In this document: in pieces, positions 7,703 through 54,532 of the stretch
Numbering within the stretch: the stretch's first letter is position 1
Layout of the letters: each line of letters opens with the position of its first letter
DNA from: Anaerolineae bacterium
GTDB lineage: Bacteria > Chloroflexota > Anaerolineae > Aggregatilineales > Phototrophicaceae
Assembly: GCA_022820665.1 (NCBI GenBank)
Contig: JAJEFB010000004.1
Span: 60,870 to 124,869, forward strand
Length of the DNA: 64,000 nt
Direction: 5' to 3'
Position numbers and translations under genes: made by a program
The notes under the pieces: model-generated
Seen by the model: the letters and a program-made list of their open reading frames with translations, nothing else
Databases searched by the model: none
Told to the model about the DNA's origin: nothing

Positions 7703-7801
7703 AGACTTGTTAGGAATCGACTGCGAGCGGCTTTGCCCAGTGATGGGTTGACGCGCCATGTGTGAAATATCCTGATATTGGAAGGAACAAGGCGGTTCCA
7801 C

Positions 7802-8824
7802 ATGACCACGCACGCAAGACATTTGCAAAACAAGATCCTCGGATGCCTATACGGCCAGGCGCTGGGCGATGCCTTCGCCATGCCTTCGCAGGTCCACCCG
7901 GACGATACCGAGCGCAGCTTCGGCTGGCTCGATAGCTGGCAAGACGCGCCCGATGACCACATCGTGCACGCCGGCTTGCCCGCTGGCCGCATCACGGATG
8001 ATTCCGAGCAAGCTTTCTCCATCGCGGCTGCGGTGATTGAGGCTGGCGGCGTGACGCTGGACGCGGTCGTCCACGGATTGGTCAGTTGGTACGACCGCGT
8101 TGGCGGCGATGACTCGCCTTATGTCGGTCCCAGCACCCGGCGCGGCATCAACGCGTTGAAAGCCGGCGGAGATCCGCGTACGACCGGTCTCTGGGGCGAT
8201 ACCAACGGCGCGCCCATGCGCATTGCGCCAATCGGCTTGCTGTACCCGGGCGACATACTCGCCGCGGTCGCCGATGCTGTGATTGTCTGCATGCCCACGC
8301 ACTACACTCAGCCGGCGGTATCGGGCGCCTCTGCAGTGGCGGCGGCAGTGGCGGCGGCGATGCTTGACGGCATCACGTTAGAGGTGGTGCTTGATGCGGG
8401 CTGGAAAGGCGCGCAACTCGGCAGAGCGAAAGGGCGCCCGTGGTTCGGCTGCTTGGTGGATTTCAAGATTGATCAGGCGCTGGATATTGCCGCGAGCGGT
8501 GAGGACGACAGGACGCGCTTGCGTCGGCTCTTTGAAGAGGTGGGCACGACCTTAAACGTGCCGGAAACGGTTGGCGCGGCTTTTGGCCTGCTGGCGATGG
8601 GGAATGGCGATCCCAAGCGAACGGCGATTCTGGCCGCCAATCTGAGCGGCGACGCCGATACCATCGGCGCTATCGCCTGCGCCATGGCTGGCACCTACGC
8701 CGGCTTTGACGCGATTCCGGCCGCAGATGTCGCGGTGTTGGAAAATGACGACGTCTTCCGCAGCTATGATGTGCGCGGTATCGCCGCCGGGCTGGAAACG
8801 CTCATTCACAGATCATTCAGCTGA
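7802..8824 (+). CDS. ADP-ribosylglycohydrolase (ARH/DraG) family protein
   Basis: N-terminal GQALGDAFAMP and C-terminal GDADTIGAIACAMAGTYAG metal-site motifs. ATG 7802 is preferred over the track's TTG 7778. Confidence 0.85.
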   Translation: MTTHARHLQNKILGCLYGQALGDAFAMPSQVHPDDTERSFGWLDSWQDAPDDHIVHAGLPAGRITDDSEQAFSIAAAVIEAGGVTLDAVVHGLVSWYDRVGGDDSPYVGPSTRRGINALKAGGDPRTTGLWGDTNGAPMRIAPIGLLYPGDILAAVADAVIVCMPTHYTQPAVSGASAVAAAVAAAMLDGITLEVVLDAGWKGAQLGRAKGRPWFGCLVDFKIDQALDIAASGEDDRTRLRRLFEEVGTTLNVPETVGAAFGLLAMGNGDPKRTAILAANLSGDADTIGAIACAMAGTYAGFDAIPAADVAVLENDDVFRSYDVRGIAAGLETLIHRSFS

Positions 8825-9780
8825 TGACTAAACGGCTAATTACAGTTGGCGACCTGGTGGTCGATCTACTGCTGGATGTTCGGTTGCCCATCAGGGCTGA
8901 CGACCATCAAATGTCGCCGACGCTGCTGCTGGAACCCGGCGGCGCTTGCAGCACCATCCTGGCGGCGCGCAATCTGGGTTTGGATGTCGCCGCGCTGGGC
9001 GCCGTCGGCGCTGATTTCCAGGGACGGATGCTGCTCGATATTATGGCGGGAGCCGGCGTCGACACGTCGGCGCTGTTGGCGTCCGCGAGCAGTACCACGA
9101 CGACTGTAGTCGCCCTCGCGGATCAGGAAGGCGGCGGGCATGTTTTCCTGGGCAACTATGGCGAAGGACCCGACATCGCGCTGACGGACGCCGCCCGCGA
9201 ACAATTGCGGCGCGCGGATGTCGTCTTTGTCTCGGGTTACTCCCTGGTCGAAGAGCGGCTGCGTCCGCTTATCGACGGCGTTTTGGAGTTTGTCAAGGAC
9301 AGTCCGACGCGGCTGTACGTGGATGTGGGTCCATTTATGAGCCAGTTGACGCGCGCAATGGTGGAGCGCGTCCTGGGTTTGGCGGATGTCCTGCTGCTGA
9401 CCGAAGACGAGATTCCTTTTGTCAGCGATGGGGAAACCGGTATCAAAGCCTGCCGCCGCTTGCTCCAACGCTATCCGTCCCTTTTGATTGTGCTGAAGTT
9501 GGGCGAAATGGGCTGCCGCATTATGGCGCCCGAAATCGACTTGCGCTGCCCCGGCTTTCCGGTCGCGGTCATTGATACCATTGGCGCGGGCGACGTCTAT
9601 GCCGCGGCTTTCATTTGGGCGCGCGCCCAGGGATATGCGCTGGAGGATTGTGGTACTATTGCCAACGCCATGGGCGCCGCGAGCGTCACAAAAGCGGGCG
9701 CCGGTCGCGGGGCGCCGACCCGAAGCGAGGTACAGGCATTGTTGGATAAGCACAAGACAGGATTGCAACTCTCATGCTAA
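8824..9780 (+). CDS. PfkB-family carbohydrate/nucleoside kinase
   Basis: DTIGAGDVYAAAFI (the PfkB GAGD motif). Abuts the ARH gene. Confidence 0.85.
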   Translation: MTKRLITVGDLVVDLLLDVRLPIRADDHQMSPTLLLEPGGACSTILAARNLGLDVAALGAVGADFQGRMLLDIMAGAGVDTSALLASASSTTTTVVALADQEGGGHVFLGNYGEGPDIALTDAAREQLRRADVVFVSGYSLVEERLRPLIDGVLEFVKDSPTRLYVDVGPFMSQLTRAMVERVLGLADVLLLTEDEIPFVSDGETGIKACRRLLQRYPSLLIVLKLGEMGCRIMAPEIDLRCPGFPVAVIDTIGAGDVYAAAFIWARAQGYALEDCGTIANAMGAASVTKAGAGRGAPTRSEVQALLDKHKTGLQLSC

Positions 9781-10181
9781 AGACCGTAGTTTTTGATACG
9801 CCGCGCGGCGATGCCCTGGTTGATATCACAGCGCATGTGCAGCAGGTGATCGATGAAAGCGGCGTAGATGCCGGGCTCTGCGCTATCGTTGTTCCACATA
9901 CTACCGCTGGCATCACCGTCAATTCGGGACTTGATCCCGCCACGCCGAACGATATTCTGGCTGATCTCAAGCGGCTGGTGCCGACGCGGGTCGATTTCGA
10001 GCATCAGTACGATACGCCAGCCGATGCCGCCGGGCATATCAAAGCGACTTTGGTCGGGCATAGCGTGACGCTGGTGATCGAGGAGGGCAAATTGCTGCTC
10101 GGGCACTCGCAAAGCATCCTGTTCTACGAATTCGACGGGCCGCGCAAGCGTCGCGCCCAAGTCAAAATACTGGGAGGATAG
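9774..10181 (+). CDS. YjbQ/UPF0047 family protein (secondary thiamine-phosphate synthase-like)
   Basis: 135 aa, PHTTAGITVNS...GHIKATLVGHS pattern typical of UPF0047. 7-nt overlap with the kinase gene. Confidence 0.8.
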   Translation: MLKTVVFDTPRGDALVDITAHVQQVIDESGVDAGLCAIVVPHTTAGITVNSGLDPATPNDILADLKRLVPTRVDFEHQYDTPADAAGHIKATLVGHSVTLVIEEGKLLLGHSQSILFYEFDGPRKRRAQVKILGG

Positions 10182-10183
10182 CC

Positions 10184-11128
10184 ATGCCGCGCAAAATCAT
10201 CATTGATACCGACCCGGGCGTTGACGACACCATGGCGATCTTCTTCGCCTTGTGCTCGCCCGAGCTGGAAGTGATCGGCTTGACCACGATCTTCGGCAAT
10301 GTGCATACCGAGTTGGCGACCAAAAACGCGCTGCGCTTGCTGGAAATCGCCGGCCGGTCCGATATCCCGGTTGCCCATGGCGCCGATAACGCGCTGACCG
10401 GACCCTTCGAAGGTCCCGTTCCTTTTGTGCATGGCAGCGACGGGCAAGGCGATATCTTCCTGCCGGACCCGGCTGGCGCGCCGCTAGACATCAGCGCGGC
10501 GCAGTTTATCGTCGAGCAACTGCGCGCGCATCCCGGCGAGATCACGCTGGCGCCGGTTGGTCCCTTGACCAATATCGCGCTGGCGCTGCGCCTGGAGCCG
10601 CGCATCACCGAGTGGGTCGATCAGGTGGTGCTGATGGGCGGGAACGCGCTGGCGCCGGGCAATGCCAGCCCCGCCGGCGAAGCCAATATCCGCAACGATC
10701 CGGAAGCGGCCGATCTGGTATTCGGCGCCGATTGGCTCGTGACCATGGTGGGCTTGGACGTGACGCACAAGGTGCACATGAAGCCGGAAGACATCGCCGA
10801 ATACGAGAGACATGGCAATCCCATGTCCGACCATATCATCCGCATCCTGCCGCACTATCGCAACTACTTCGAATCAAGCTATCCGGCGGAGGGGATCTTC
10901 GTTCACGATTCCAGCGCCATCGCCTATATTCTCGATCCGTCGCTATTCGAGACCAAGCGCTGGGCGATCCGCGTCGGTACGCAGGGCTTGGGACGGGGCA
11001 AGACCTGGCCCGCCTTCGGCAAGCACATATTGCCGCCCTGGCAGAATCGGCCGCTGGTCAATGTCTGCGTCGACGTCGATGGTCCCCGCGTGGTGGCGCT
11101 GGAAGCCCAGCGCCTGCGGGACGCGTAA
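10184..11128 (+). CDS. Nucleoside hydrolase (IUNH family)
   Basis: MPRKIIIDTDPGVDDTMAIFFAL... with the DTDPGxDD motif. 314 aa. Confidence 0.9.
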   Translation: MPRKIIIDTDPGVDDTMAIFFALCSPELEVIGLTTIFGNVHTELATKNALRLLEIAGRSDIPVAHGADNALTGPFEGPVPFVHGSDGQGDIFLPDPAGAPLDISAAQFIVEQLRAHPGEITLAPVGPLTNIALALRLEPRITEWVDQVVLMGGNALAPGNASPAGEANIRNDPEAADLVFGADWLVTMVGLDVTHKVHMKPEDIAEYERHGNPMSDHIIRILPHYRNYFESSYPAEGIFVHDSSAIAYILDPSLFETKRWAIRVGTQGLGRGKTWPAFGKHILPPWQNRPLVNVCVDVDGPRVVALEAQRLRDA

Positions 11129-50081: not shown

Positions 50082-50290
50082 CCTTCGTCGGGAGTTGTAA
50101 ACATCGCGGAATTATTGTCACTTAGCGAAACCGCGCGGGTTTTTTCATCACCGGGGACACAAGTAGAACCAAGAATAGTGATGAACGTTTTGAGGACAGC
50201 TAAGGGAACAGGTTTTGGGCGACATGGCAGGTCGCGTAGGGCGCGTGGGTCGCGTAGACACTGACCGCCTGTCGCCCCTACGACCCGCCG

Positions 50291-50459
50291 CGCCCATGAA
50301 CACTCTCGTTGGACAACAACAACATACGTTGTCCAACGAGAGTGTGGGTTTAGTTTTGTAGCCTTTCCCTTCCTAGGGGATACAAAACTACAAAACTAAA
50401 TGGACGTCGGATCGGGCTTGCGATAAGTCTTGACATTGTGCCGACCCGTTTCCTCCGAC
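50291..50459. repeat. Repeat module copy A: hairpin 1 (50301-50344), hairpin 2 (50349-50400) and a ~60-nt 3-prime fragment of a wHTH gene
   Basis: About 90% identical by hand alignment to 54068-54235. Hairpin 1 is a perfect 17-bp stem, cactctcgttggacaac / gttgtccaacgagagtg. Hairpin 2 is a 13-bp stem, tttagttttgtag / ctacaaaactaaa. Confidence 0.85.
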
Positions 50460-50463
50460 GCTT

Positions 50464-50488
50464 GTAGGGGCGGGCAATCTGCCCGCCC
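50464..50488. repeat. 25-nt palindromic REP-like element (GTAGGGGCG family)
   Basis: gtaggggcgggcaatctgcccgccc. Confidence 0.7.
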
Positions 50489-50830
50489 GAAAACTCTGCG
50501 CCTCTGTGGTGAATCCTTGTCGCCCGCCGATGAAGCAACGGATTTCGACATGGTATGAGGGGCGACATGTTTTTTAACGACTAACTTGGAACTACTGAGT
50601 TTCTGTGCCTGGCGAATTTATCATAGTGTCGGAATTTATCGCTTCATTTGCGCGAAAATTGTGACTCGTCCCGCGAAAATGGTTACAATCTATTCTGACT
50701 GGGAGAGACAAGAACGCGGTTTCGCGTTGGTCCAGTCTCATATGCGATCGAGTTGATTTCGAAGGGCATCCGCTTTGAAGATGTCTGTTTGTACGCCATC
50801 TATTTGAATGAAGCGACATAGGAGAGAGCC

Positions 50831-52138
50831 ATGAAACTTTTTGATTACGCGGACTTTGTTGAAGGCTGGGACCTCACGATAAACCGCTATGCGACGCAAA
50901 AGGTCGAATTCGGCGCGCCCGGCGTCGCGGAAAAAGTCGCCGAAATCGAAGCGCTGCTCAAGCAAAAGATAGCGGAACTGGACGCGCTGCCCAACGACCC
51001 CGAGCTGGCGAAGGCGGAACCCGACGATCTGGCCTCAATCAAGGCGCTGCGCCCGCCCGGCCGCCGCCGCTTGACGACATCGCTCCCCGACAACTTCCGC
51101 GATCGCCTGGCAGGAGCCTGGCTCGCTCGCTGCGCTGGCTGTACGCTCGGCTCTATCGTCGAAGGCTGGAAAGTGGACCGCATGGAGCGCTGGGCTGCTT
51201 ACCTCGGCGACCCGTTCCCGCTGGTGGACTACTGGAGCCAGGCGGAACAACCGCATTTGCCACGCTTGAAGATGAGCGTGCGCCACGATTACACGCCCTC
51301 AAAGATGGACGGCGTGCCCAGCGATGACGACCTGAATTACACGCTGCTCGGTCTGCTGGTCCTGGAAGAATACGGACCCGATTTCACCGTCGAAGACGTG
51401 GGGGCGGCTTGGGTGAAATACCTGCCCTTCGCCTTCACTGCCGAGGGCATCGCGCTTGACAATCTGCGGGCGGGCTTGCCGGCGATGCAAGCGGGGGCGC
51501 TCAACAATCCCTGTCAGAATTGGATCGGCGCTGATATCCGCTCCGATCCCTGGGGTTATGCCGCGCCCGGCTGGCCAGAGAGAGCGGCGGAATTCGCCTG
51601 GCGCGACGCCACCATCAGCCACCGGCGCAACGGCGTCTACGCCGCCATGTTTTTCTCGGCGGCGATTTCGGCTGCCTTCGCCGTCGATGATCCGATGGAG
51701 GCTTTGAAAATCGGCTTGGAAGAGATACCCGCCGATTCCATTACGGCGCGTGAAATCCGCTGGGCGCTGGAGGTAGCGCCGTCTATCTCGGGTTACAAAG
51801 ATGCCGCCGCGCTGGTCGAGGAGCGTTATCCCGGTATGTGGAAGTCGCATTCCTTCCAGAATAACGCCTTGACGATCTGGGGCTTGGCGGTCGGCGGCGA
51901 TGACTGCACCAAAGTCATCGGCGAAACTGTTTCCATGGGCCAGGACAACGACTGCACCGCCGCCACCGCCGGCAGCATCTTCGGCGGCGTCTACGGGACG
52001 GATGCCATCCCCGAACACTGGACACGCAATTTCAACAACAAGATTCATTGCTACCTGAACGGGCATCCGAGTTTCGCCCTCGACTACGTGGTTGATCGCT
52101 TCGTCGCGCAGGCGGAAAGGGTCATTGCAGGTGATTAG
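50831..52138 (+). CDS. ADP-ribosylglycohydrolase-family protein with a ~90-aa N-terminal helical extension (ARH-A)
   Basis: 435 aa. C-terminal metal motif MGQDNDCTAATAGSIFGGVYG. The extension MKLFDYADFVEGWDLTINRYATQKVEFGAPGVAEKVAEIEALLKQK... has no family I recognise. Confidence 0.85.
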   Translation: MKLFDYADFVEGWDLTINRYATQKVEFGAPGVAEKVAEIEALLKQKIAELDALPNDPELAKAEPDDLASIKALRPPGRRRLTTSLPDNFRDRLAGAWLARCAGCTLGSIVEGWKVDRMERWAAYLGDPFPLVDYWSQAEQPHLPRLKMSVRHDYTPSKMDGVPSDDDLNYTLLGLLVLEEYGPDFTVEDVGAAWVKYLPFAFTAEGIALDNLRAGLPAMQAGALNNPCQNWIGADIRSDPWGYAAPGWPERAAEFAWRDATISHRRNGVYAAMFFSAAISAAFAVDDPMEALKIGLEEIPADSITAREIRWALEVAPSISGYKDAAALVEERYPGMWKSHSFQNNALTIWGLAVGGDDCTKVIGETVSMGQDNDCTAATAGSIFGGVYGTDAIPEHWTRNFNNKIHCYLNGHPSFALDYVVDRFVAQAERVIAGD

Positions 52139-52211
52139 GAGATTCACCACAGCCGCTCGCAATTCCGAGCTTGGCTGGCGCGAAATAAAAAGTTCACAAA
52201 TACGAGAATTT

Positions 52212-52236
52212 GTAGGGGCGACCAACCTGGTCGCCC
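52212..52236. repeat. 25-nt palindromic REP-like element (GTAGGGGCG family)
   Basis: gtaggggcgaccaacctggtcgccc, between the two ARH paralogs. Confidence 0.7.
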
Positions 52237-52295
52237 GTTGTGGCTGTAATCCGTATTTCCGCAATCAGTAATCAGACTTAAAACAGGAGAGAACC

Positions 52296-53603
52296 ATGCG
52301 ACTATTTGAGTATCCGGACAAAGTGGCGGCTTGGGAACGGATGATCAACGCCTACGCGCAGCAGAAGGTCGAATTCGGCGCCAGCGGCGTGGCGGAAAAA
52401 GTGGCGGAGATTGAAGCGCTGCTCAAGCAAAAGGTGGCGGAGTTGGACGCCTTGGCCAACGATGCCGCATTGGCAAAGGCGGAACCCGATGATCTCGAGA
52501 CGATCCGCAGCCTGCGCCCGGCGGGCAGCCGCCGGATCTGGACGAGCCTTTCGGAGGATTTCCGTGAGCGCCTGGAAGGGTCCTGGCTGGGGCGCTGCTC
52601 CGGCTGCACGCTCGGCTCGATCGTCGAAGGCTGGACCGTCGAGCGGATGGAGCAATGGGCGGAATACCTCGGCGACGAATACCCGCTGGTGGATTACTGG
52701 AGTCAGGCGGAACAACCTCATAATCGCAAGTACCAAACTAGCCTGCGCGAAGACTTCACGCCCGCAAAGATGGATGGCGTGCCCACCGATGACGATCTCA
52801 ACTACACGCTGCTCGGTCTGATGATCCTGGAAGAATACGGGACCGACTTCACTACCGATGAACTGGGCGAAGCCTGGATCAAATACCTGCCCTTCGCCTT
52901 CACTGCCGAAGGCATCGCCCTGGATAACTTGCGGAAGGGCATCCCGCCCATGCAAGCGGCTGAAGTCGACAATTGCTTTCTGAACTGGATCGGCGCCGAT
53001 ATCCGCTCGGATCCCTGGGGTTACGCCGCGCCCGGCTGGCCCGAGAAAGCGGCGGAATTCGCCTATCGCGATGCTTACGTCAGCCACCGGCGCAACGGCA
53101 TCTATGCCGCCATGTTTTTCTCGGCGGCGATTTCGGCCGCTTTCGCCGTTAATGATCCGGTCGAGGCTCTGCAAATCGGCTTGGAAGAGATACCAGCCGA
53201 CTGTCTTCTGGCGCGGGAAGTGCGCTGGGCGCTTGATATGGCGCCATCAATCGCGAACTATCGCGATGCCGCCGCCGCCATCGAGGAACGTTATCCGCAA
53301 ATGGGCGGGGCGCACGCCATCAACAACACCGTTCTCACCGTTTGGGGTTTGACCGTCGGCGGCGGCGACTACACAAAAGTCATCGGCGAAACCGTCGCCA
53401 TGGGCAAGGACAACGACTGCACCGCCGCCACCGCCGGCAGCATCTGGGGCGCAGTCTATGGCAAGAGCGCCATCCCCAAGCACTGGTACAAGAACTTCAA
53501 CAACAAGGTGCATACTTTCTTGTACCACCAATCGACCTTTGCCATTGACGACGTCTTGGATCGCTTTGTCGTCCAGGCGGAGAAAGTCATGGCGGGTGAT
53601 TAG
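52296..53603 (+). CDS. ADP-ribosylglycohydrolase-family protein, tandem paralog (ARH-B)
   Basis: Also 435 aa and colinear with ARH-A. 44/60 identical in the first 60 residues by hand count. MGKDNDCTAATAGSIWGAVYG. Confidence 0.85.
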   Translation: MRLFEYPDKVAAWERMINAYAQQKVEFGASGVAEKVAEIEALLKQKVAELDALANDAALAKAEPDDLETIRSLRPAGSRRIWTSLSEDFRERLEGSWLGRCSGCTLGSIVEGWTVERMEQWAEYLGDEYPLVDYWSQAEQPHNRKYQTSLREDFTPAKMDGVPTDDDLNYTLLGLMILEEYGTDFTTDELGEAWIKYLPFAFTAEGIALDNLRKGIPPMQAAEVDNCFLNWIGADIRSDPWGYAAPGWPEKAAEFAYRDAYVSHRRNGIYAAMFFSAAISAAFAVNDPVEALQIGLEEIPADCLLAREVRWALDMAPSIANYRDAAAAIEERYPQMGGAHAINNTVLTVWGLTVGGGDYTKVIGETVAMGKDNDCTAATAGSIWGAVYGKSAIPKHWYKNFNNKVHTFLYHQSTFAIDDVLDRFVVQAEKVMAGD

Positions 53604-53966
53604 CCTCCGATTTTCGAGGTAGATCAGCGGCATACCGCGAGCGCTATATGGCAAGGACGGAACGCGCTTTCGTGTCGAGATTGTAGGGCTTGTCCGGTAC
53701 TGGTAAAGTCGCATTCGCCTTTGATCTACCCCCCTCAATCCCCCCATAGCAATGGGGGGAAGCTAGTTTCGACGCTGCATCAACGCGAGTATTCTGATGT
53801 TGCAAGTGTCGATAGCTGCCGTTTTCAAGCGAGTTCGCGCTACGTTAGCTCCCCTTCCCTGATGCCTCGGGATACTTCCCCCGTGAGGCGGGGGACCGAG
53901 GGGGCACTGGGCCGGGGGATGGGGTAGAAAAAGCGCGGTTGCATGACCCAGTACCGGACAAGCCTT

Positions 53967-53991
53967 GTAGGGGCGGGCAATCCGCCCGCCC
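53967..53991. repeat. 25-nt palindromic REP-like element (GTAGGGGCG family)
   Basis: gtaggggcgggcaatccgcccgccc. One nt different from the 50464 copy. Confidence 0.7.
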
Positions 53992-54067
53992 GCCGATGAC
54001 GCGACAGGTCACATAGGCTGGCGGGCGACATGGTATGTCGCCCCTACGAGTTTCGACAGTAACGCCA

Positions 54068-54235
54068 CGCCCATGAACACTCCCACTGGACAACAACAAC
54101 AAAAGTTGTCCAGTGGGAGTGTGGGTTTAGTTTTGTAGCCTTTCCAATCCTAGGGAATACAAAACTACAAAACTAAATGGGCGTCAGATCGGGCTTGCGA
54201 TAGGTTTTGCGATTCTCGGGACCCTTTTCCTCGAC
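54068..54235. repeat. Repeat module copy B: hairpin 1 (54078-54121), hairpin 2 (54126-54177) and the 3-prime end of the intact wHTH gene
   Basis: Hairpin 1 is cactcccactggacaac / gttgtccagtgggagtg, again perfect. It differs from copy A at three stem positions, each compensated on the other arm. Confidence 0.85.
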
Positions 54236-54445
54236 CAGGGCTTCTTCGGCCACCAATTCTTTGATATACGGTGTACATTGCCAGCGGCTCAAACCGACAG
54301 CCTCCGCAATCGCTTCCTGGCTGTCATGCCCGGCTGCGACGGCAGCCATGATCTTGTCCTTGACGCGCGGCGCTGGCTCTGTCCTCGGACCCGTCTTGAC
54401 CGCGATGACGGGTGATATGGTCGGTCGCGTAGGGCGCGTGGACAC
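54173..54445 (-). CDS. Small winged-helix DNA-binding protein (MarR/ArsR-like wHTH), start uncertain
   Basis: ...KDKIMAAVAAGHDSQEAIAEAVGLSRWQCTPYIKELVAEEALVEEKG... The GTG start and first ~10 codons (STRPTRPT) lie in a REP-like repeat. The stop codon lies inside the hairpin 2 stem. Confidence 0.5.
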   Translation of the reverse strand: MSTRPTRPTISPVIAVKTGPRTEPAPRVKDKIMAAVAAGHDSQEAIAEAVGLSRWQCTPYIKELVAEEALVEEKGPENRKTYRKPDLTPI

Positions 54446-54532
54446 AGCCCTTCGACACTGACCGCCTTTCGCCCCTACAATTCTCGCGATGAAACTTGTA
54501 GGGGACGGGTCGAAGAGGGCTCAATTGCAAAT

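Follow-up and report, generated by a model that had tools for sequence, protein, structure and literature searches.

In staphylococcal pathogenicity islands (SaPIs), the C-terminal winged-helix domain (WHD) of the initiators Rep and PriRep5 binds iterons that lie immediately downstream of rep and are oppositely directed (PMC9371898). The archaeal plasmid pRN1 encodes ORF904, which unites a prim-pol, a helicase and a WHD, and its stem-loop origin downstream of this gene is conserved in structure but not in sequence and has conserved flanks; a similar arrangement has been noted for Bordetella phage BIP-1 (PMC4234260). Here we describe a repeat module with two hairpins that occurs twice in a 64,000-nt stretch of an Anaerolineae bacterium (assembly GCA_022820665.1, contig JAJEFB010000004.1, positions 60,870–124,869; hereafter, the window). 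The two copies, A and B, are very probably relics of the 3′ end of a replication gene (rep) together with the module that follows it, and the module itself is probably the replication origin of a phage- or satellite-like element.

The two copies (50286–50455 and 54063–54232) align without gaps over 170 nt with 86% identity (86.5% by blastn). A sequence-only reading of the window, which put the identity at about 90% (15 differences in ~143 nt aligned by hand), had described a real two-copy repeat. Hairpin 1 has arms at 50300–50317/50328–50345 in copy A and 54077–54094/54105–54122 in copy B, which are 100% complementary and separated by a 10-nt spacer; the stem is perfect in both copies, as that reading had it, but measures 18 bp and not 17. 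The 5′ arms of the two copies, ACACTCTCGTTGGACAAC and ACACTCCCACTGGACAAC, differ in three positions, and every change is matched in the 3′ arm (T:A to C:G, G:C to A:T and T:A to C:G), exactly as first reported. Equally correct was the description of hairpin 2, a 13-bp stem (TTTAGTTTTGTAG/CTACAAAACTAAA) that follows 4 nt past hairpin 1, has a 26-nt loop containing CCTAGG and accommodates in one arm the TAG stop codon of a minus-strand open reading frame (ORF), of which copy A retains only the last 60 nt, coding EETGRHNVKTYRKPDPTSI and the stop. A 23-nt core of the module occurs twice in the window with 0.00 occurrences expected from shuffles, and the folding z-scores of the hairpin region range from −8.3 to −10.5 on either strand. 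With 47% GC, and 38% in hairpin 2, the module is AT-richer than its flanks (about 58%).

The ORF had been taken for a small stand-alone winged helix-turn-helix (wHTH) gene, but it constitutes the last 89 codons of a truncated replication protein of 528 amino acids, a putative Prim-Pol/AAA_25 protein with a winged-helix C-terminus. When the 58-aa ORF predicted by gene finders (54173–54349, minus strand, inside the copy B remnant) and then a profile were compared with 5.8 billion proteins, only seven clusters were retrieved, and HMMER against 1.84 billion representatives gave only 22 matches at E ≤ 0.001. One of the latter, P0008 (524 aa), carries the WHD at its C-terminus. It is 81% identical with P0026 (528 aa). 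The metagenome sample that yielded P0026 also contains contig L030, which is 100% identical to the window over 10 kb. Residues 440–528 of P0026 match window positions 54427–54176 with 71% identity (tblastn, E = 1e-30), and no other part of the rep gene was found in the window by tblastn with this protein. Both P0008 and P0026 match AAA_25 (E = 4e-18 and 5e-17), and full-length Rep matches a PHROG DNA polymerase/primase (3e-20). The remaining rep remnants start at Rep residues 389–477 and all share one 3′ end; their pN/pS relative to the intact genes is 0.26–0.79, calculated on very few sites. Copy A is not a simple duplicate of copy B, since its residues GRHNVKTYR are closer to the variants P0004 and P0007 than to copy B.

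In an AlphaFold model of the full-length protein, only the C-terminal WHD is confident (pLDDT 88–90, compared with 37 for the remainder). The modelled domain is predicted to be a complete helix-helix-helix-wing, and the Met of the small ORF falls within its first helix, so that the 58-aa ORF most likely represents a gene fragment and not an independent small regulator. Foldseek returned only weak MarR/ArsR/AspA-like matches, and Pfam with the small ORF only a sub-threshold match to wHTH-PRTase_assc; a search of NCBIfam gave nothing useful, and tblastn with the wHTH sequence found no match in phage and plasmid collections.

In the intact element, a 175–196-aa HTH protein is followed by a 339-aa terminase-large-subunit-like protein (phrog_2, 9e-27) and Rep. 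The module starts at the stop codon of the intact rep genes of L032, L033 and L031 (145.8, 94.9 and 68.1 bits with a covariance model) and at the ORF stop in every contig coding for a homolog of the wHTH ORF. Its neighbourhoods vary: purA precedes it in the syntenic L018 and L030, a MutS-like gene in L017 and an ABC gene in L019; in L023 a phage capsid gene lies nearby, in L028 it adjoins IS110, and in L029 it forms a tandem array following the trp operon. Across the 64-kb window and ~290 kb of related loci, the covariance model detected no other copy away from rep ORFs or their fragments, and the module is thus not a dispersed REP-like family (REP, repetitive extragenic palindromic). No integrase is present between CoaE and TAL-PGI in L032 or L033, and the 25-nt direct repeat that flanks the element is the terminal inverted repeat of an abundant miniature inverted-repeat transposable element (MITE); judged from these contigs, the element appears to lack the integrase at one end and the flanking att repeats of a satellite of the phage-inducible chromosomal island (PICI) type. 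Three motifs are conserved on the gene strand: the hairpin 2 loop has CCCTAGG, the junction has CTRAACC(C/A)NCAC, and hairpin 1 is followed by GTTCNTGGG, which is present as GTTCNTGGG(C/T) in 11/11 aligned copies.

The covariation noticed between the two window copies is real, and it holds across 18 copies, which come from about 12 loci. In a MAFFT alignment of 11 copies, 11/29 pairs show a double-sided change. The 18-copy alignment, which was fitted to the covariance model and thereby favours pairing, gives a like picture, with double-sided change in 13/29 pairs and 92.6% of cells paired; none of 500 shuffles scored as high, and sliding the partners by one to three columns as a control left 33–44% paired. 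In hairpin 1, six of the 13 outer pairs change on both sides, and the central three pairs (RYW) vary freely with full Watson–Crick compensation. This centre is independent of WHD class, as P0001 and P0026 share the same recognition helix and have the centres ACT and GTT. There are almost no G:U pairs in hairpin 1, and its transversions are fully compensated. We infer that hairpin 1 is a palindrome constrained in structure and not in sequence. The stems are perfect in all three intact elements. Decayed relics have two unpaired positions (L028a) or one (L028b), a second copy in L033 lacks the palindrome centre, and L034 and L029 contain degenerate copies. Although the numbers are small, this suggests selection for perfect stems in the active element and their decay in relics. 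In an orphan module at 2879–3016 of L034, the hairpin 1 loop reads AACAACAAAA instead of TTTTGTTGTT, inverted with respect to every other copy, and the stems and flanks keep their orientation; the palindrome has thus been inverted at the DNA level.

Hairpin 2 is not only a hairpin, because its 5′ arm contains two to three direct copies of a 5–8-nt unit, only one of which can pair with the 3′ arm, and pairing alone needs no direct copies. Variants of the unit are TAGTTTTG, GTTAGGTA, GTTA, TAGA, GGTTTGG, GTTTTTG and AGTT(G/C)GG. Two to three direct units on the left and one to three inverted units on the right are found in 11/12 variants, around a centre that contains CCCTAGG and is not AT-rich; in copy B, the GTTTTGT unit is present twice in direct and one to two times in inverted orientation. 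Among the three intact elements, Rep is 73–97% identical per 30-column alignment window (90–97% in the ATPase core), but the WHD only 40%; the module diverges together with the WHD, whereas TerS and TerL are conserved. Comparison of the DNA analysed here with the syntenic L018 locates such divergence: the flanks are 95–100% identical, and identity is only 50–78% in a segment that starts at codon 20 of the WHD, runs across hairpin 2 and includes the hairpin 1 5′ arm, as in a swapped cassette; the 3′ arm of hairpin 1 shows only two differences, both compensating partners.

The repeat units follow the recognition helix. According to a grouping made by eye, helices with a Cys motif (C-T/W/M-P/D; four variants: P0001/2/26, P0004, P0007 and P0009) pair with GTTT(T/K)G units, and (L/F)R(P/A) helices (five variants: P0003, P0006, P0027, P0005/8 and P0011) with GTTAG or AGTT(G/C)GG units. 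P0009 was fetched after this rule had been formed and obeys it. L032, which holds an intact element from the same metagenome, encodes a Rep with a recognition helix identical to that of the window remnant, and the TAGTTTTG unit is common to L032, window copies A and B, and L017. Direct repeats, localised divergence, the swapped cassette and the tracking of unit by helix argue for a DNA site that is read by the WHD. Hairpin 2 would accordingly be a short set of iterons around the conserved CCCTAGG, contacted by the recognition helix; of the three roles put forward in the sequence-only reading (a structured RNA, a recombination or cassette-junction site, or a palindrome bound by the wHTH protein), the protein-binding one, as repeat or palindrome, fits best.

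In the mechanism that we propose, the recognition helix of the C-terminal WHD of Rep would read the iterons of hairpin 2 in a small phage- or satellite-like element, and the palindrome of hairpin 1 would open, by extrusion or melting, to let the helicase load or priming begin. The window keeps only the WHD-coding end and its site, as two 5′-truncated relics among REP and MITE repeats.

SaPIs and other PICIs resemble this arrangement in several respects: an initiator-helicase with a C-terminal winged helix (fused to a primase in PriRep5), a cis site right after the rep ORF, short opposed repeats on both sides, variant-specific pairs of protein and site, and terS-type packaging genes in a small element. 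They differ in that the ATPase here is AAA_25 (RepA/RecA-like), the centre of the site is CCCTAGG instead of AT-rich, an additional 18-bp palindrome (hairpin 1) is present, no integrase lies beside the element, and the first repeat overlaps the stop codon. With pRN1, the module shares a protein composed of an NTPase, a C-terminal winged helix and, here putatively, a prim-pol, a smaller hairpin at the stop codon, and a downstream stem-loop of preserved structure and variable sequence between conserved flanks (here CTRAACC(C/A)NCAC and GTTCNTGGG). ORF904, however, belongs to an archaeal plasmid and has an SF3 helicase, whereas the ATPase here is AAA_25 and not SF3; the pRN1 origin is devoid of iterons; and the stem-loop here is shorter, with 46 nt instead of about 100 nt, and borders directly on the repeat block. 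The module combines SaPI-type and pRN1-type features and by homology is in neither family. The alpha protein of phage P4 is a primase-helicase whose C-terminal DNA-binding domain recognises octamer repeats in both orientations (see the discussion in PMC4234260). It differs in having a Toprim primase, neither ori nor crr is a stop-codon hairpin module, and no homology to it was found.

Several observations weigh against an origin read by the WHD. The Prim-Pol match of full-length Rep is weak (PF09250, E = 6e-4, 20.7 bits) and lies under the Pfam cut-off of 22.8. Homology to SaPI Rep or ORF904 was not detected, and phmmer against PDB sequences returned RadA only (E = 0.08). The correlation of helix and iteron comes from about 9–11 related variants that are not phylogenetically independent, and P0011 is a loose fit only (AGTTGGG/AGTTCGG). 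At the centre of hairpin 2 stands CCCTAGG in place of an AT-rich stretch. The module might also belong to a transcribed 3′ untranslated region (UTR); gene-strand folds are 1–9 kcal/mol more stable in window-type copies, albeit less stable elsewhere. Finally, a circular form of the element would put the module ~250–300 bp upstream of terS, where a packaging site is possible.

The hairpins could act in RNA, as part of the 3′ UTR of the rep transcript or as a small RNA, where a two-hairpin or three-way-junction fold would stabilise, terminate or regulate the mRNA, with the stop codon occluded by hairpin 2. Strong covariation is in keeping with this, as is a closing stem (ACGCCCA/TGGGCGT) that surrounds both hairpins in window-type copies, would make a three-way junction, and is kept via gene-strand G:U pairs in copy A and L019, with two compensated pairs. 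L029 nevertheless lacks the stem, which is also weak in L018 and L028, and we regard it as a tentative feature. Folding energies and G:U counts give an inconsistent picture of the strand between lineages: the gene strand folds more stably than the opposite strand in window copy A, L017 and L018, and less stably in L019, L023, L028 and L029. RNA pairing does not account for the direct repeats that hairpin 2 carries in its 5′ arm, and the scarcity of G:U pairs and fully compensated transversions in hairpin 1, together with the inverted loop of the orphan copy, speak against RNA as well. Rfam yielded 0 matches in the window at the gathering score, and a permissive search only sub-threshold miRNA-like hairpins. 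A structured RNA is thus an unlikely explanation. Equally transcript-based is the idea that the stems terminate transcription, perhaps bidirectionally, at the close of the rep operon, with covariation expressing the need for a stable stem. The stems are indeed very stable, the site directly follows the stop codon, and hairpin 1 precedes the T-rich GGGTTTAGTTTTG on the plus strand; in pRN1, too, orf904 is immediately followed by a small terminator hairpin (PMC4234260). On the gene strand, however, the hairpins are followed by AACCCACAC and TTCATGGGCG, and neither contains a U-tract, a point already made in the sequence-only reading and borne out by a terminator scan, which flags nothing there. 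This makes a terminator role improbable. It would also render the conserved motifs (CCCTAGG, CTRAACC and GTTCNTGGG) and the direct repeats superfluous and leave the co-divergence with the recognition helix unexplained, and in L017 and L032 the downstream genes run in the same direction, so that an opposite-strand terminator has no role there.

The two copies could also mark the ends of an inserted cassette, with the tandem ADP-ribosylglycohydrolase (ARH) genes as its cargo and the module as a recombination or packaging site (att, cassette junction, cos or pac). Direct repeats do flank 3.6 kb of DNA, synteny with relatives stops exactly past module B, all relics are 3′-anchored and 5′-truncated and are found in tandem arrays (L029), terS- and terL-like genes reside on the element, and assemblies break at this place. 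Yet neither the element nor the window segment contains or adjoins an integrase or recombinase, the two copies share only 86% identity and no distinct identical core, and the coding remnant of copy A comes from another variant. An attC site is contradicted by perfect stems without extrahelical bases, by the absence of RYYYAAC/GTTRRRY at the stem base and by the lack of a tyrosine recombinase nearby. TerS is conserved while the module diverges, and the breakpoints coincide with REP and MITE repeats, which could suffice to explain the rearrangements. We therefore give this possibility little credence. Still more improbable is that the compensation is uninformative on function, having arisen by template switching or gene conversion between the arms in dead DNA. 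The inverted L034 loop does show that arms recombine or switch template, and the window relics have two perfect stems without a rep gene. However, relics elsewhere decay, with the unpaired positions of L028a and L028b, the lost palindrome centre of L033 and the degenerate copies of L034 and L029, whereas all three intact elements have perfect stems; neither the conserved flank motifs nor the correlation with the WHD would be explained.

The features of the window are listed in Table 1.

Table 1. Coordinates of the module copies, rep remnants and neighbouring features in the window
Feature	Position	Strand	Evidence or remark
Copy A hairpin 1, perfect 18-bp palindrome	50300–50345	−	Inverted-repeat search, folding
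Copy A hairpin 2, candidate iteron block	50349–50400	−	Covariance model, 142.8 bits over 50281–50424
Copy A rep remnant, final 19 codons and stop	50396–50455	−	Severed by REP at 50461–50489
Copy B conserved 3′ tail of module	54064–54076	−	Gene strand GTTCATGGGCG
Copy B hairpin 1, perfect 18-bp palindrome with 10-nt spacer	54077–54122	−	Inverted-repeat search, folding
Copy B hairpin 2, candidate iteron block	54126–54177	−	Gene strand TTTAGTTTTG-TAGTTTTG-TAT ... CCCTAGG ... CTACAAAACTAAA; stop in 5′ arm
Copy B rep remnant, 5′-truncated, Prim-Pol/AAA_25/winged-helix gene	54176–54427	−	Residues 440–528 of P0026, tblastn
Composite REP-type host repeat (GTAGGGGCG head)	54410–54478	−	Abuts 5′ truncation point of remnant B
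Composite REP-type repeat, second copy	50217–50281	−	Beside copy A
Two simple REPs, GTAGGGGCGGGCAATCCGCCCGCCC and CGGGCGACATGGTATGTCGCCCCTAC	53964–54047		Just past module B; synteny with L018 ends
Tandem ADP-ribosylglycohydrolase pair between the relics	50831–53603	+	Pfam PF03747, E = 5e-46 and 2e-46; context only

An additional segment shared by the surroundings of both copies is real (50217–50248 and 54410–54441, 88% identity; 50257–50281 and 54454–54478, 96%), but it is not a shuffled part of the same unit, as had been proposed, because it is a separate REP-type host repeat that is also found away from the module. These REPs consist of a GTAGGGGCG head and a GC-rich palindrome. The window contains eight heads (7678, 39301, 50273, 50464, 52212, 53967, 54039 and 54470) compared with 0.39 expected, one of them between the two ARH genes, and the repeat is also present in related loci; its composite form carries an insert of ~40 nt. 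The module itself resembles REPs and bacterial interspersed mosaic elements (BIMEs) in being a palindromic intergenic repeat, and genuine REPs with the GTAGGGGCG head adjoin both copies. Membership in such a family is nevertheless not supported: the module is low-copy (two copies in the window and, in ~290 kb of related loci, others only beside rep or its remnants), AT-richer, devoid of the GTAG head and always tied to the 3′ end of rep, and the true REPs are separate from it.

MITE-like repeats are found at the same locus. One occupies 53687–53964 of the window, with perfect 17-bp terminal inverted repeats GGCTTGTCCGGTACTGG and internal CCCCCCTCAATCCCCCCATAGCAATGGGGGG, and has kin in L019, L029, L032 and L033. 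The motif GGATTCACCACAGAGG was considered as a source of extra iterons and rejected, as it forms the terminal inverted repeats of another MITE family that is abundant in this lineage; in the form GGATTCACCACAGAGG(C)GCAGAG, it is present at 50501–50515 of the window, in L033 (16 copies in 21 kb), L032 and L031, and it flanks and interrupts the rep element. Between the relics, the ARH genes (50831–52138 and 52296–53603) encode 435-aa paralogues with 73–82% nucleotide identity in blocks, each with an N-terminal extension of ~95 aa beyond the Pfam domain, and show no composition anomaly. The proposal that the module forms a unit bracketing these genes is not supported, as the two copies derive from different element variants and there is neither a recombinase nor an identical core site; the bracketing looks incidental.

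Related loci show further rearrangements around the module. In L029, positions 9380–10830 contain at least four modules of two types, two 5′-truncated rep fragments, one of them with a REP in place of its start, and additional copies that have decayed; the array marks a hot spot where insertion or duplication has recurred. In L028, an orphan module copy has an IS110-family transposase gene (7713–9157) as its neighbour at a distance of ~100 bp. Repeats are frequent targets of IS110 elements, and this one may have split the relic or duplicated it on insertion. Contigs L019 and L031 overlap at 99.8% identity and were joined (10001–11758 of L019 to 258–5733 of L031). In this genome, a relic (P0004 and its module) is situated ~1.5 kb upstream of an intact element of a different specificity type, with an MbnB/TglH-family gene between them, a layout that resembles the window in that two modules flank host genes. 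Several public assemblies are interrupted at the module and REP cluster or just past it: at the end of L030 (equivalent to window position 53922), at the end of L031 (inside hairpin 1), and in L025 and L026. These breaks show that the region is repeated within the genomes concerned and difficult to assemble.

Wider scans gave no further copies. A scan of 185,579 species with the hairpin 2 arms returned 16 hairpins from Neolewinella, Bacteroidota, Anaerolineales and Chloroflexus, which are unrelated and built from TAGTTNNN octamers; the two that were checked, L010 and L013, lie beside housekeeping genes and not beside rep. Periodic 8-nt hairpins of this kind (TAGTTNNN/NNNAACTA), from Bacteroidota and Chloroflexota, are present in L001, L005, L007, L011, L014 (Neolewinella lacunae), L009, L012, L010 and L013, and those of Neolewinella sit within MITE-like elements with ACGTCAGGTTG... 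terminal repeats. The single match of a three-motif pattern in a metagenome scan falls within a coding region and was discarded as chance, and a scan of viral sequences found no match to the module.

The consistent 3′ anchoring of the relics could result from REP- or MITE-mediated deletion, from repeated insertion, or from selection for an origin/WHD decoy, and a truncated WHD with its iterons could be a decoy that limits replication of the element. There is also a slim chance that the relic modules are live origins answering the Rep of a resident element, given the identical recognition helix and the same TAGTTTTG unit. If so, the relic origins flanking the ARH pair could fire in situ when the L032 Rep is expressed and over-replicate the intervening host genes, which the terminase of the element would perhaps package.

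The feature is ordinary in kind, a rep-linked, origin-type module of a small element that is present in the window as truncated relics. Compensatory changes in a hairpin beside a small HTH ORF can stem from the origin of a mobile element and not from a host RNA gene, which calls for caution when such structures are interpreted. The co-varying structure can now be interpreted as the putative cis site of a replicon of the Prim-Pol/AAA_25/winged-helix type, which is unstudied and belongs to an uncultured lineage. Despite its very small size, the family provides naturally matched pairs of recognition helix and repeat unit, a series that is directly testable.

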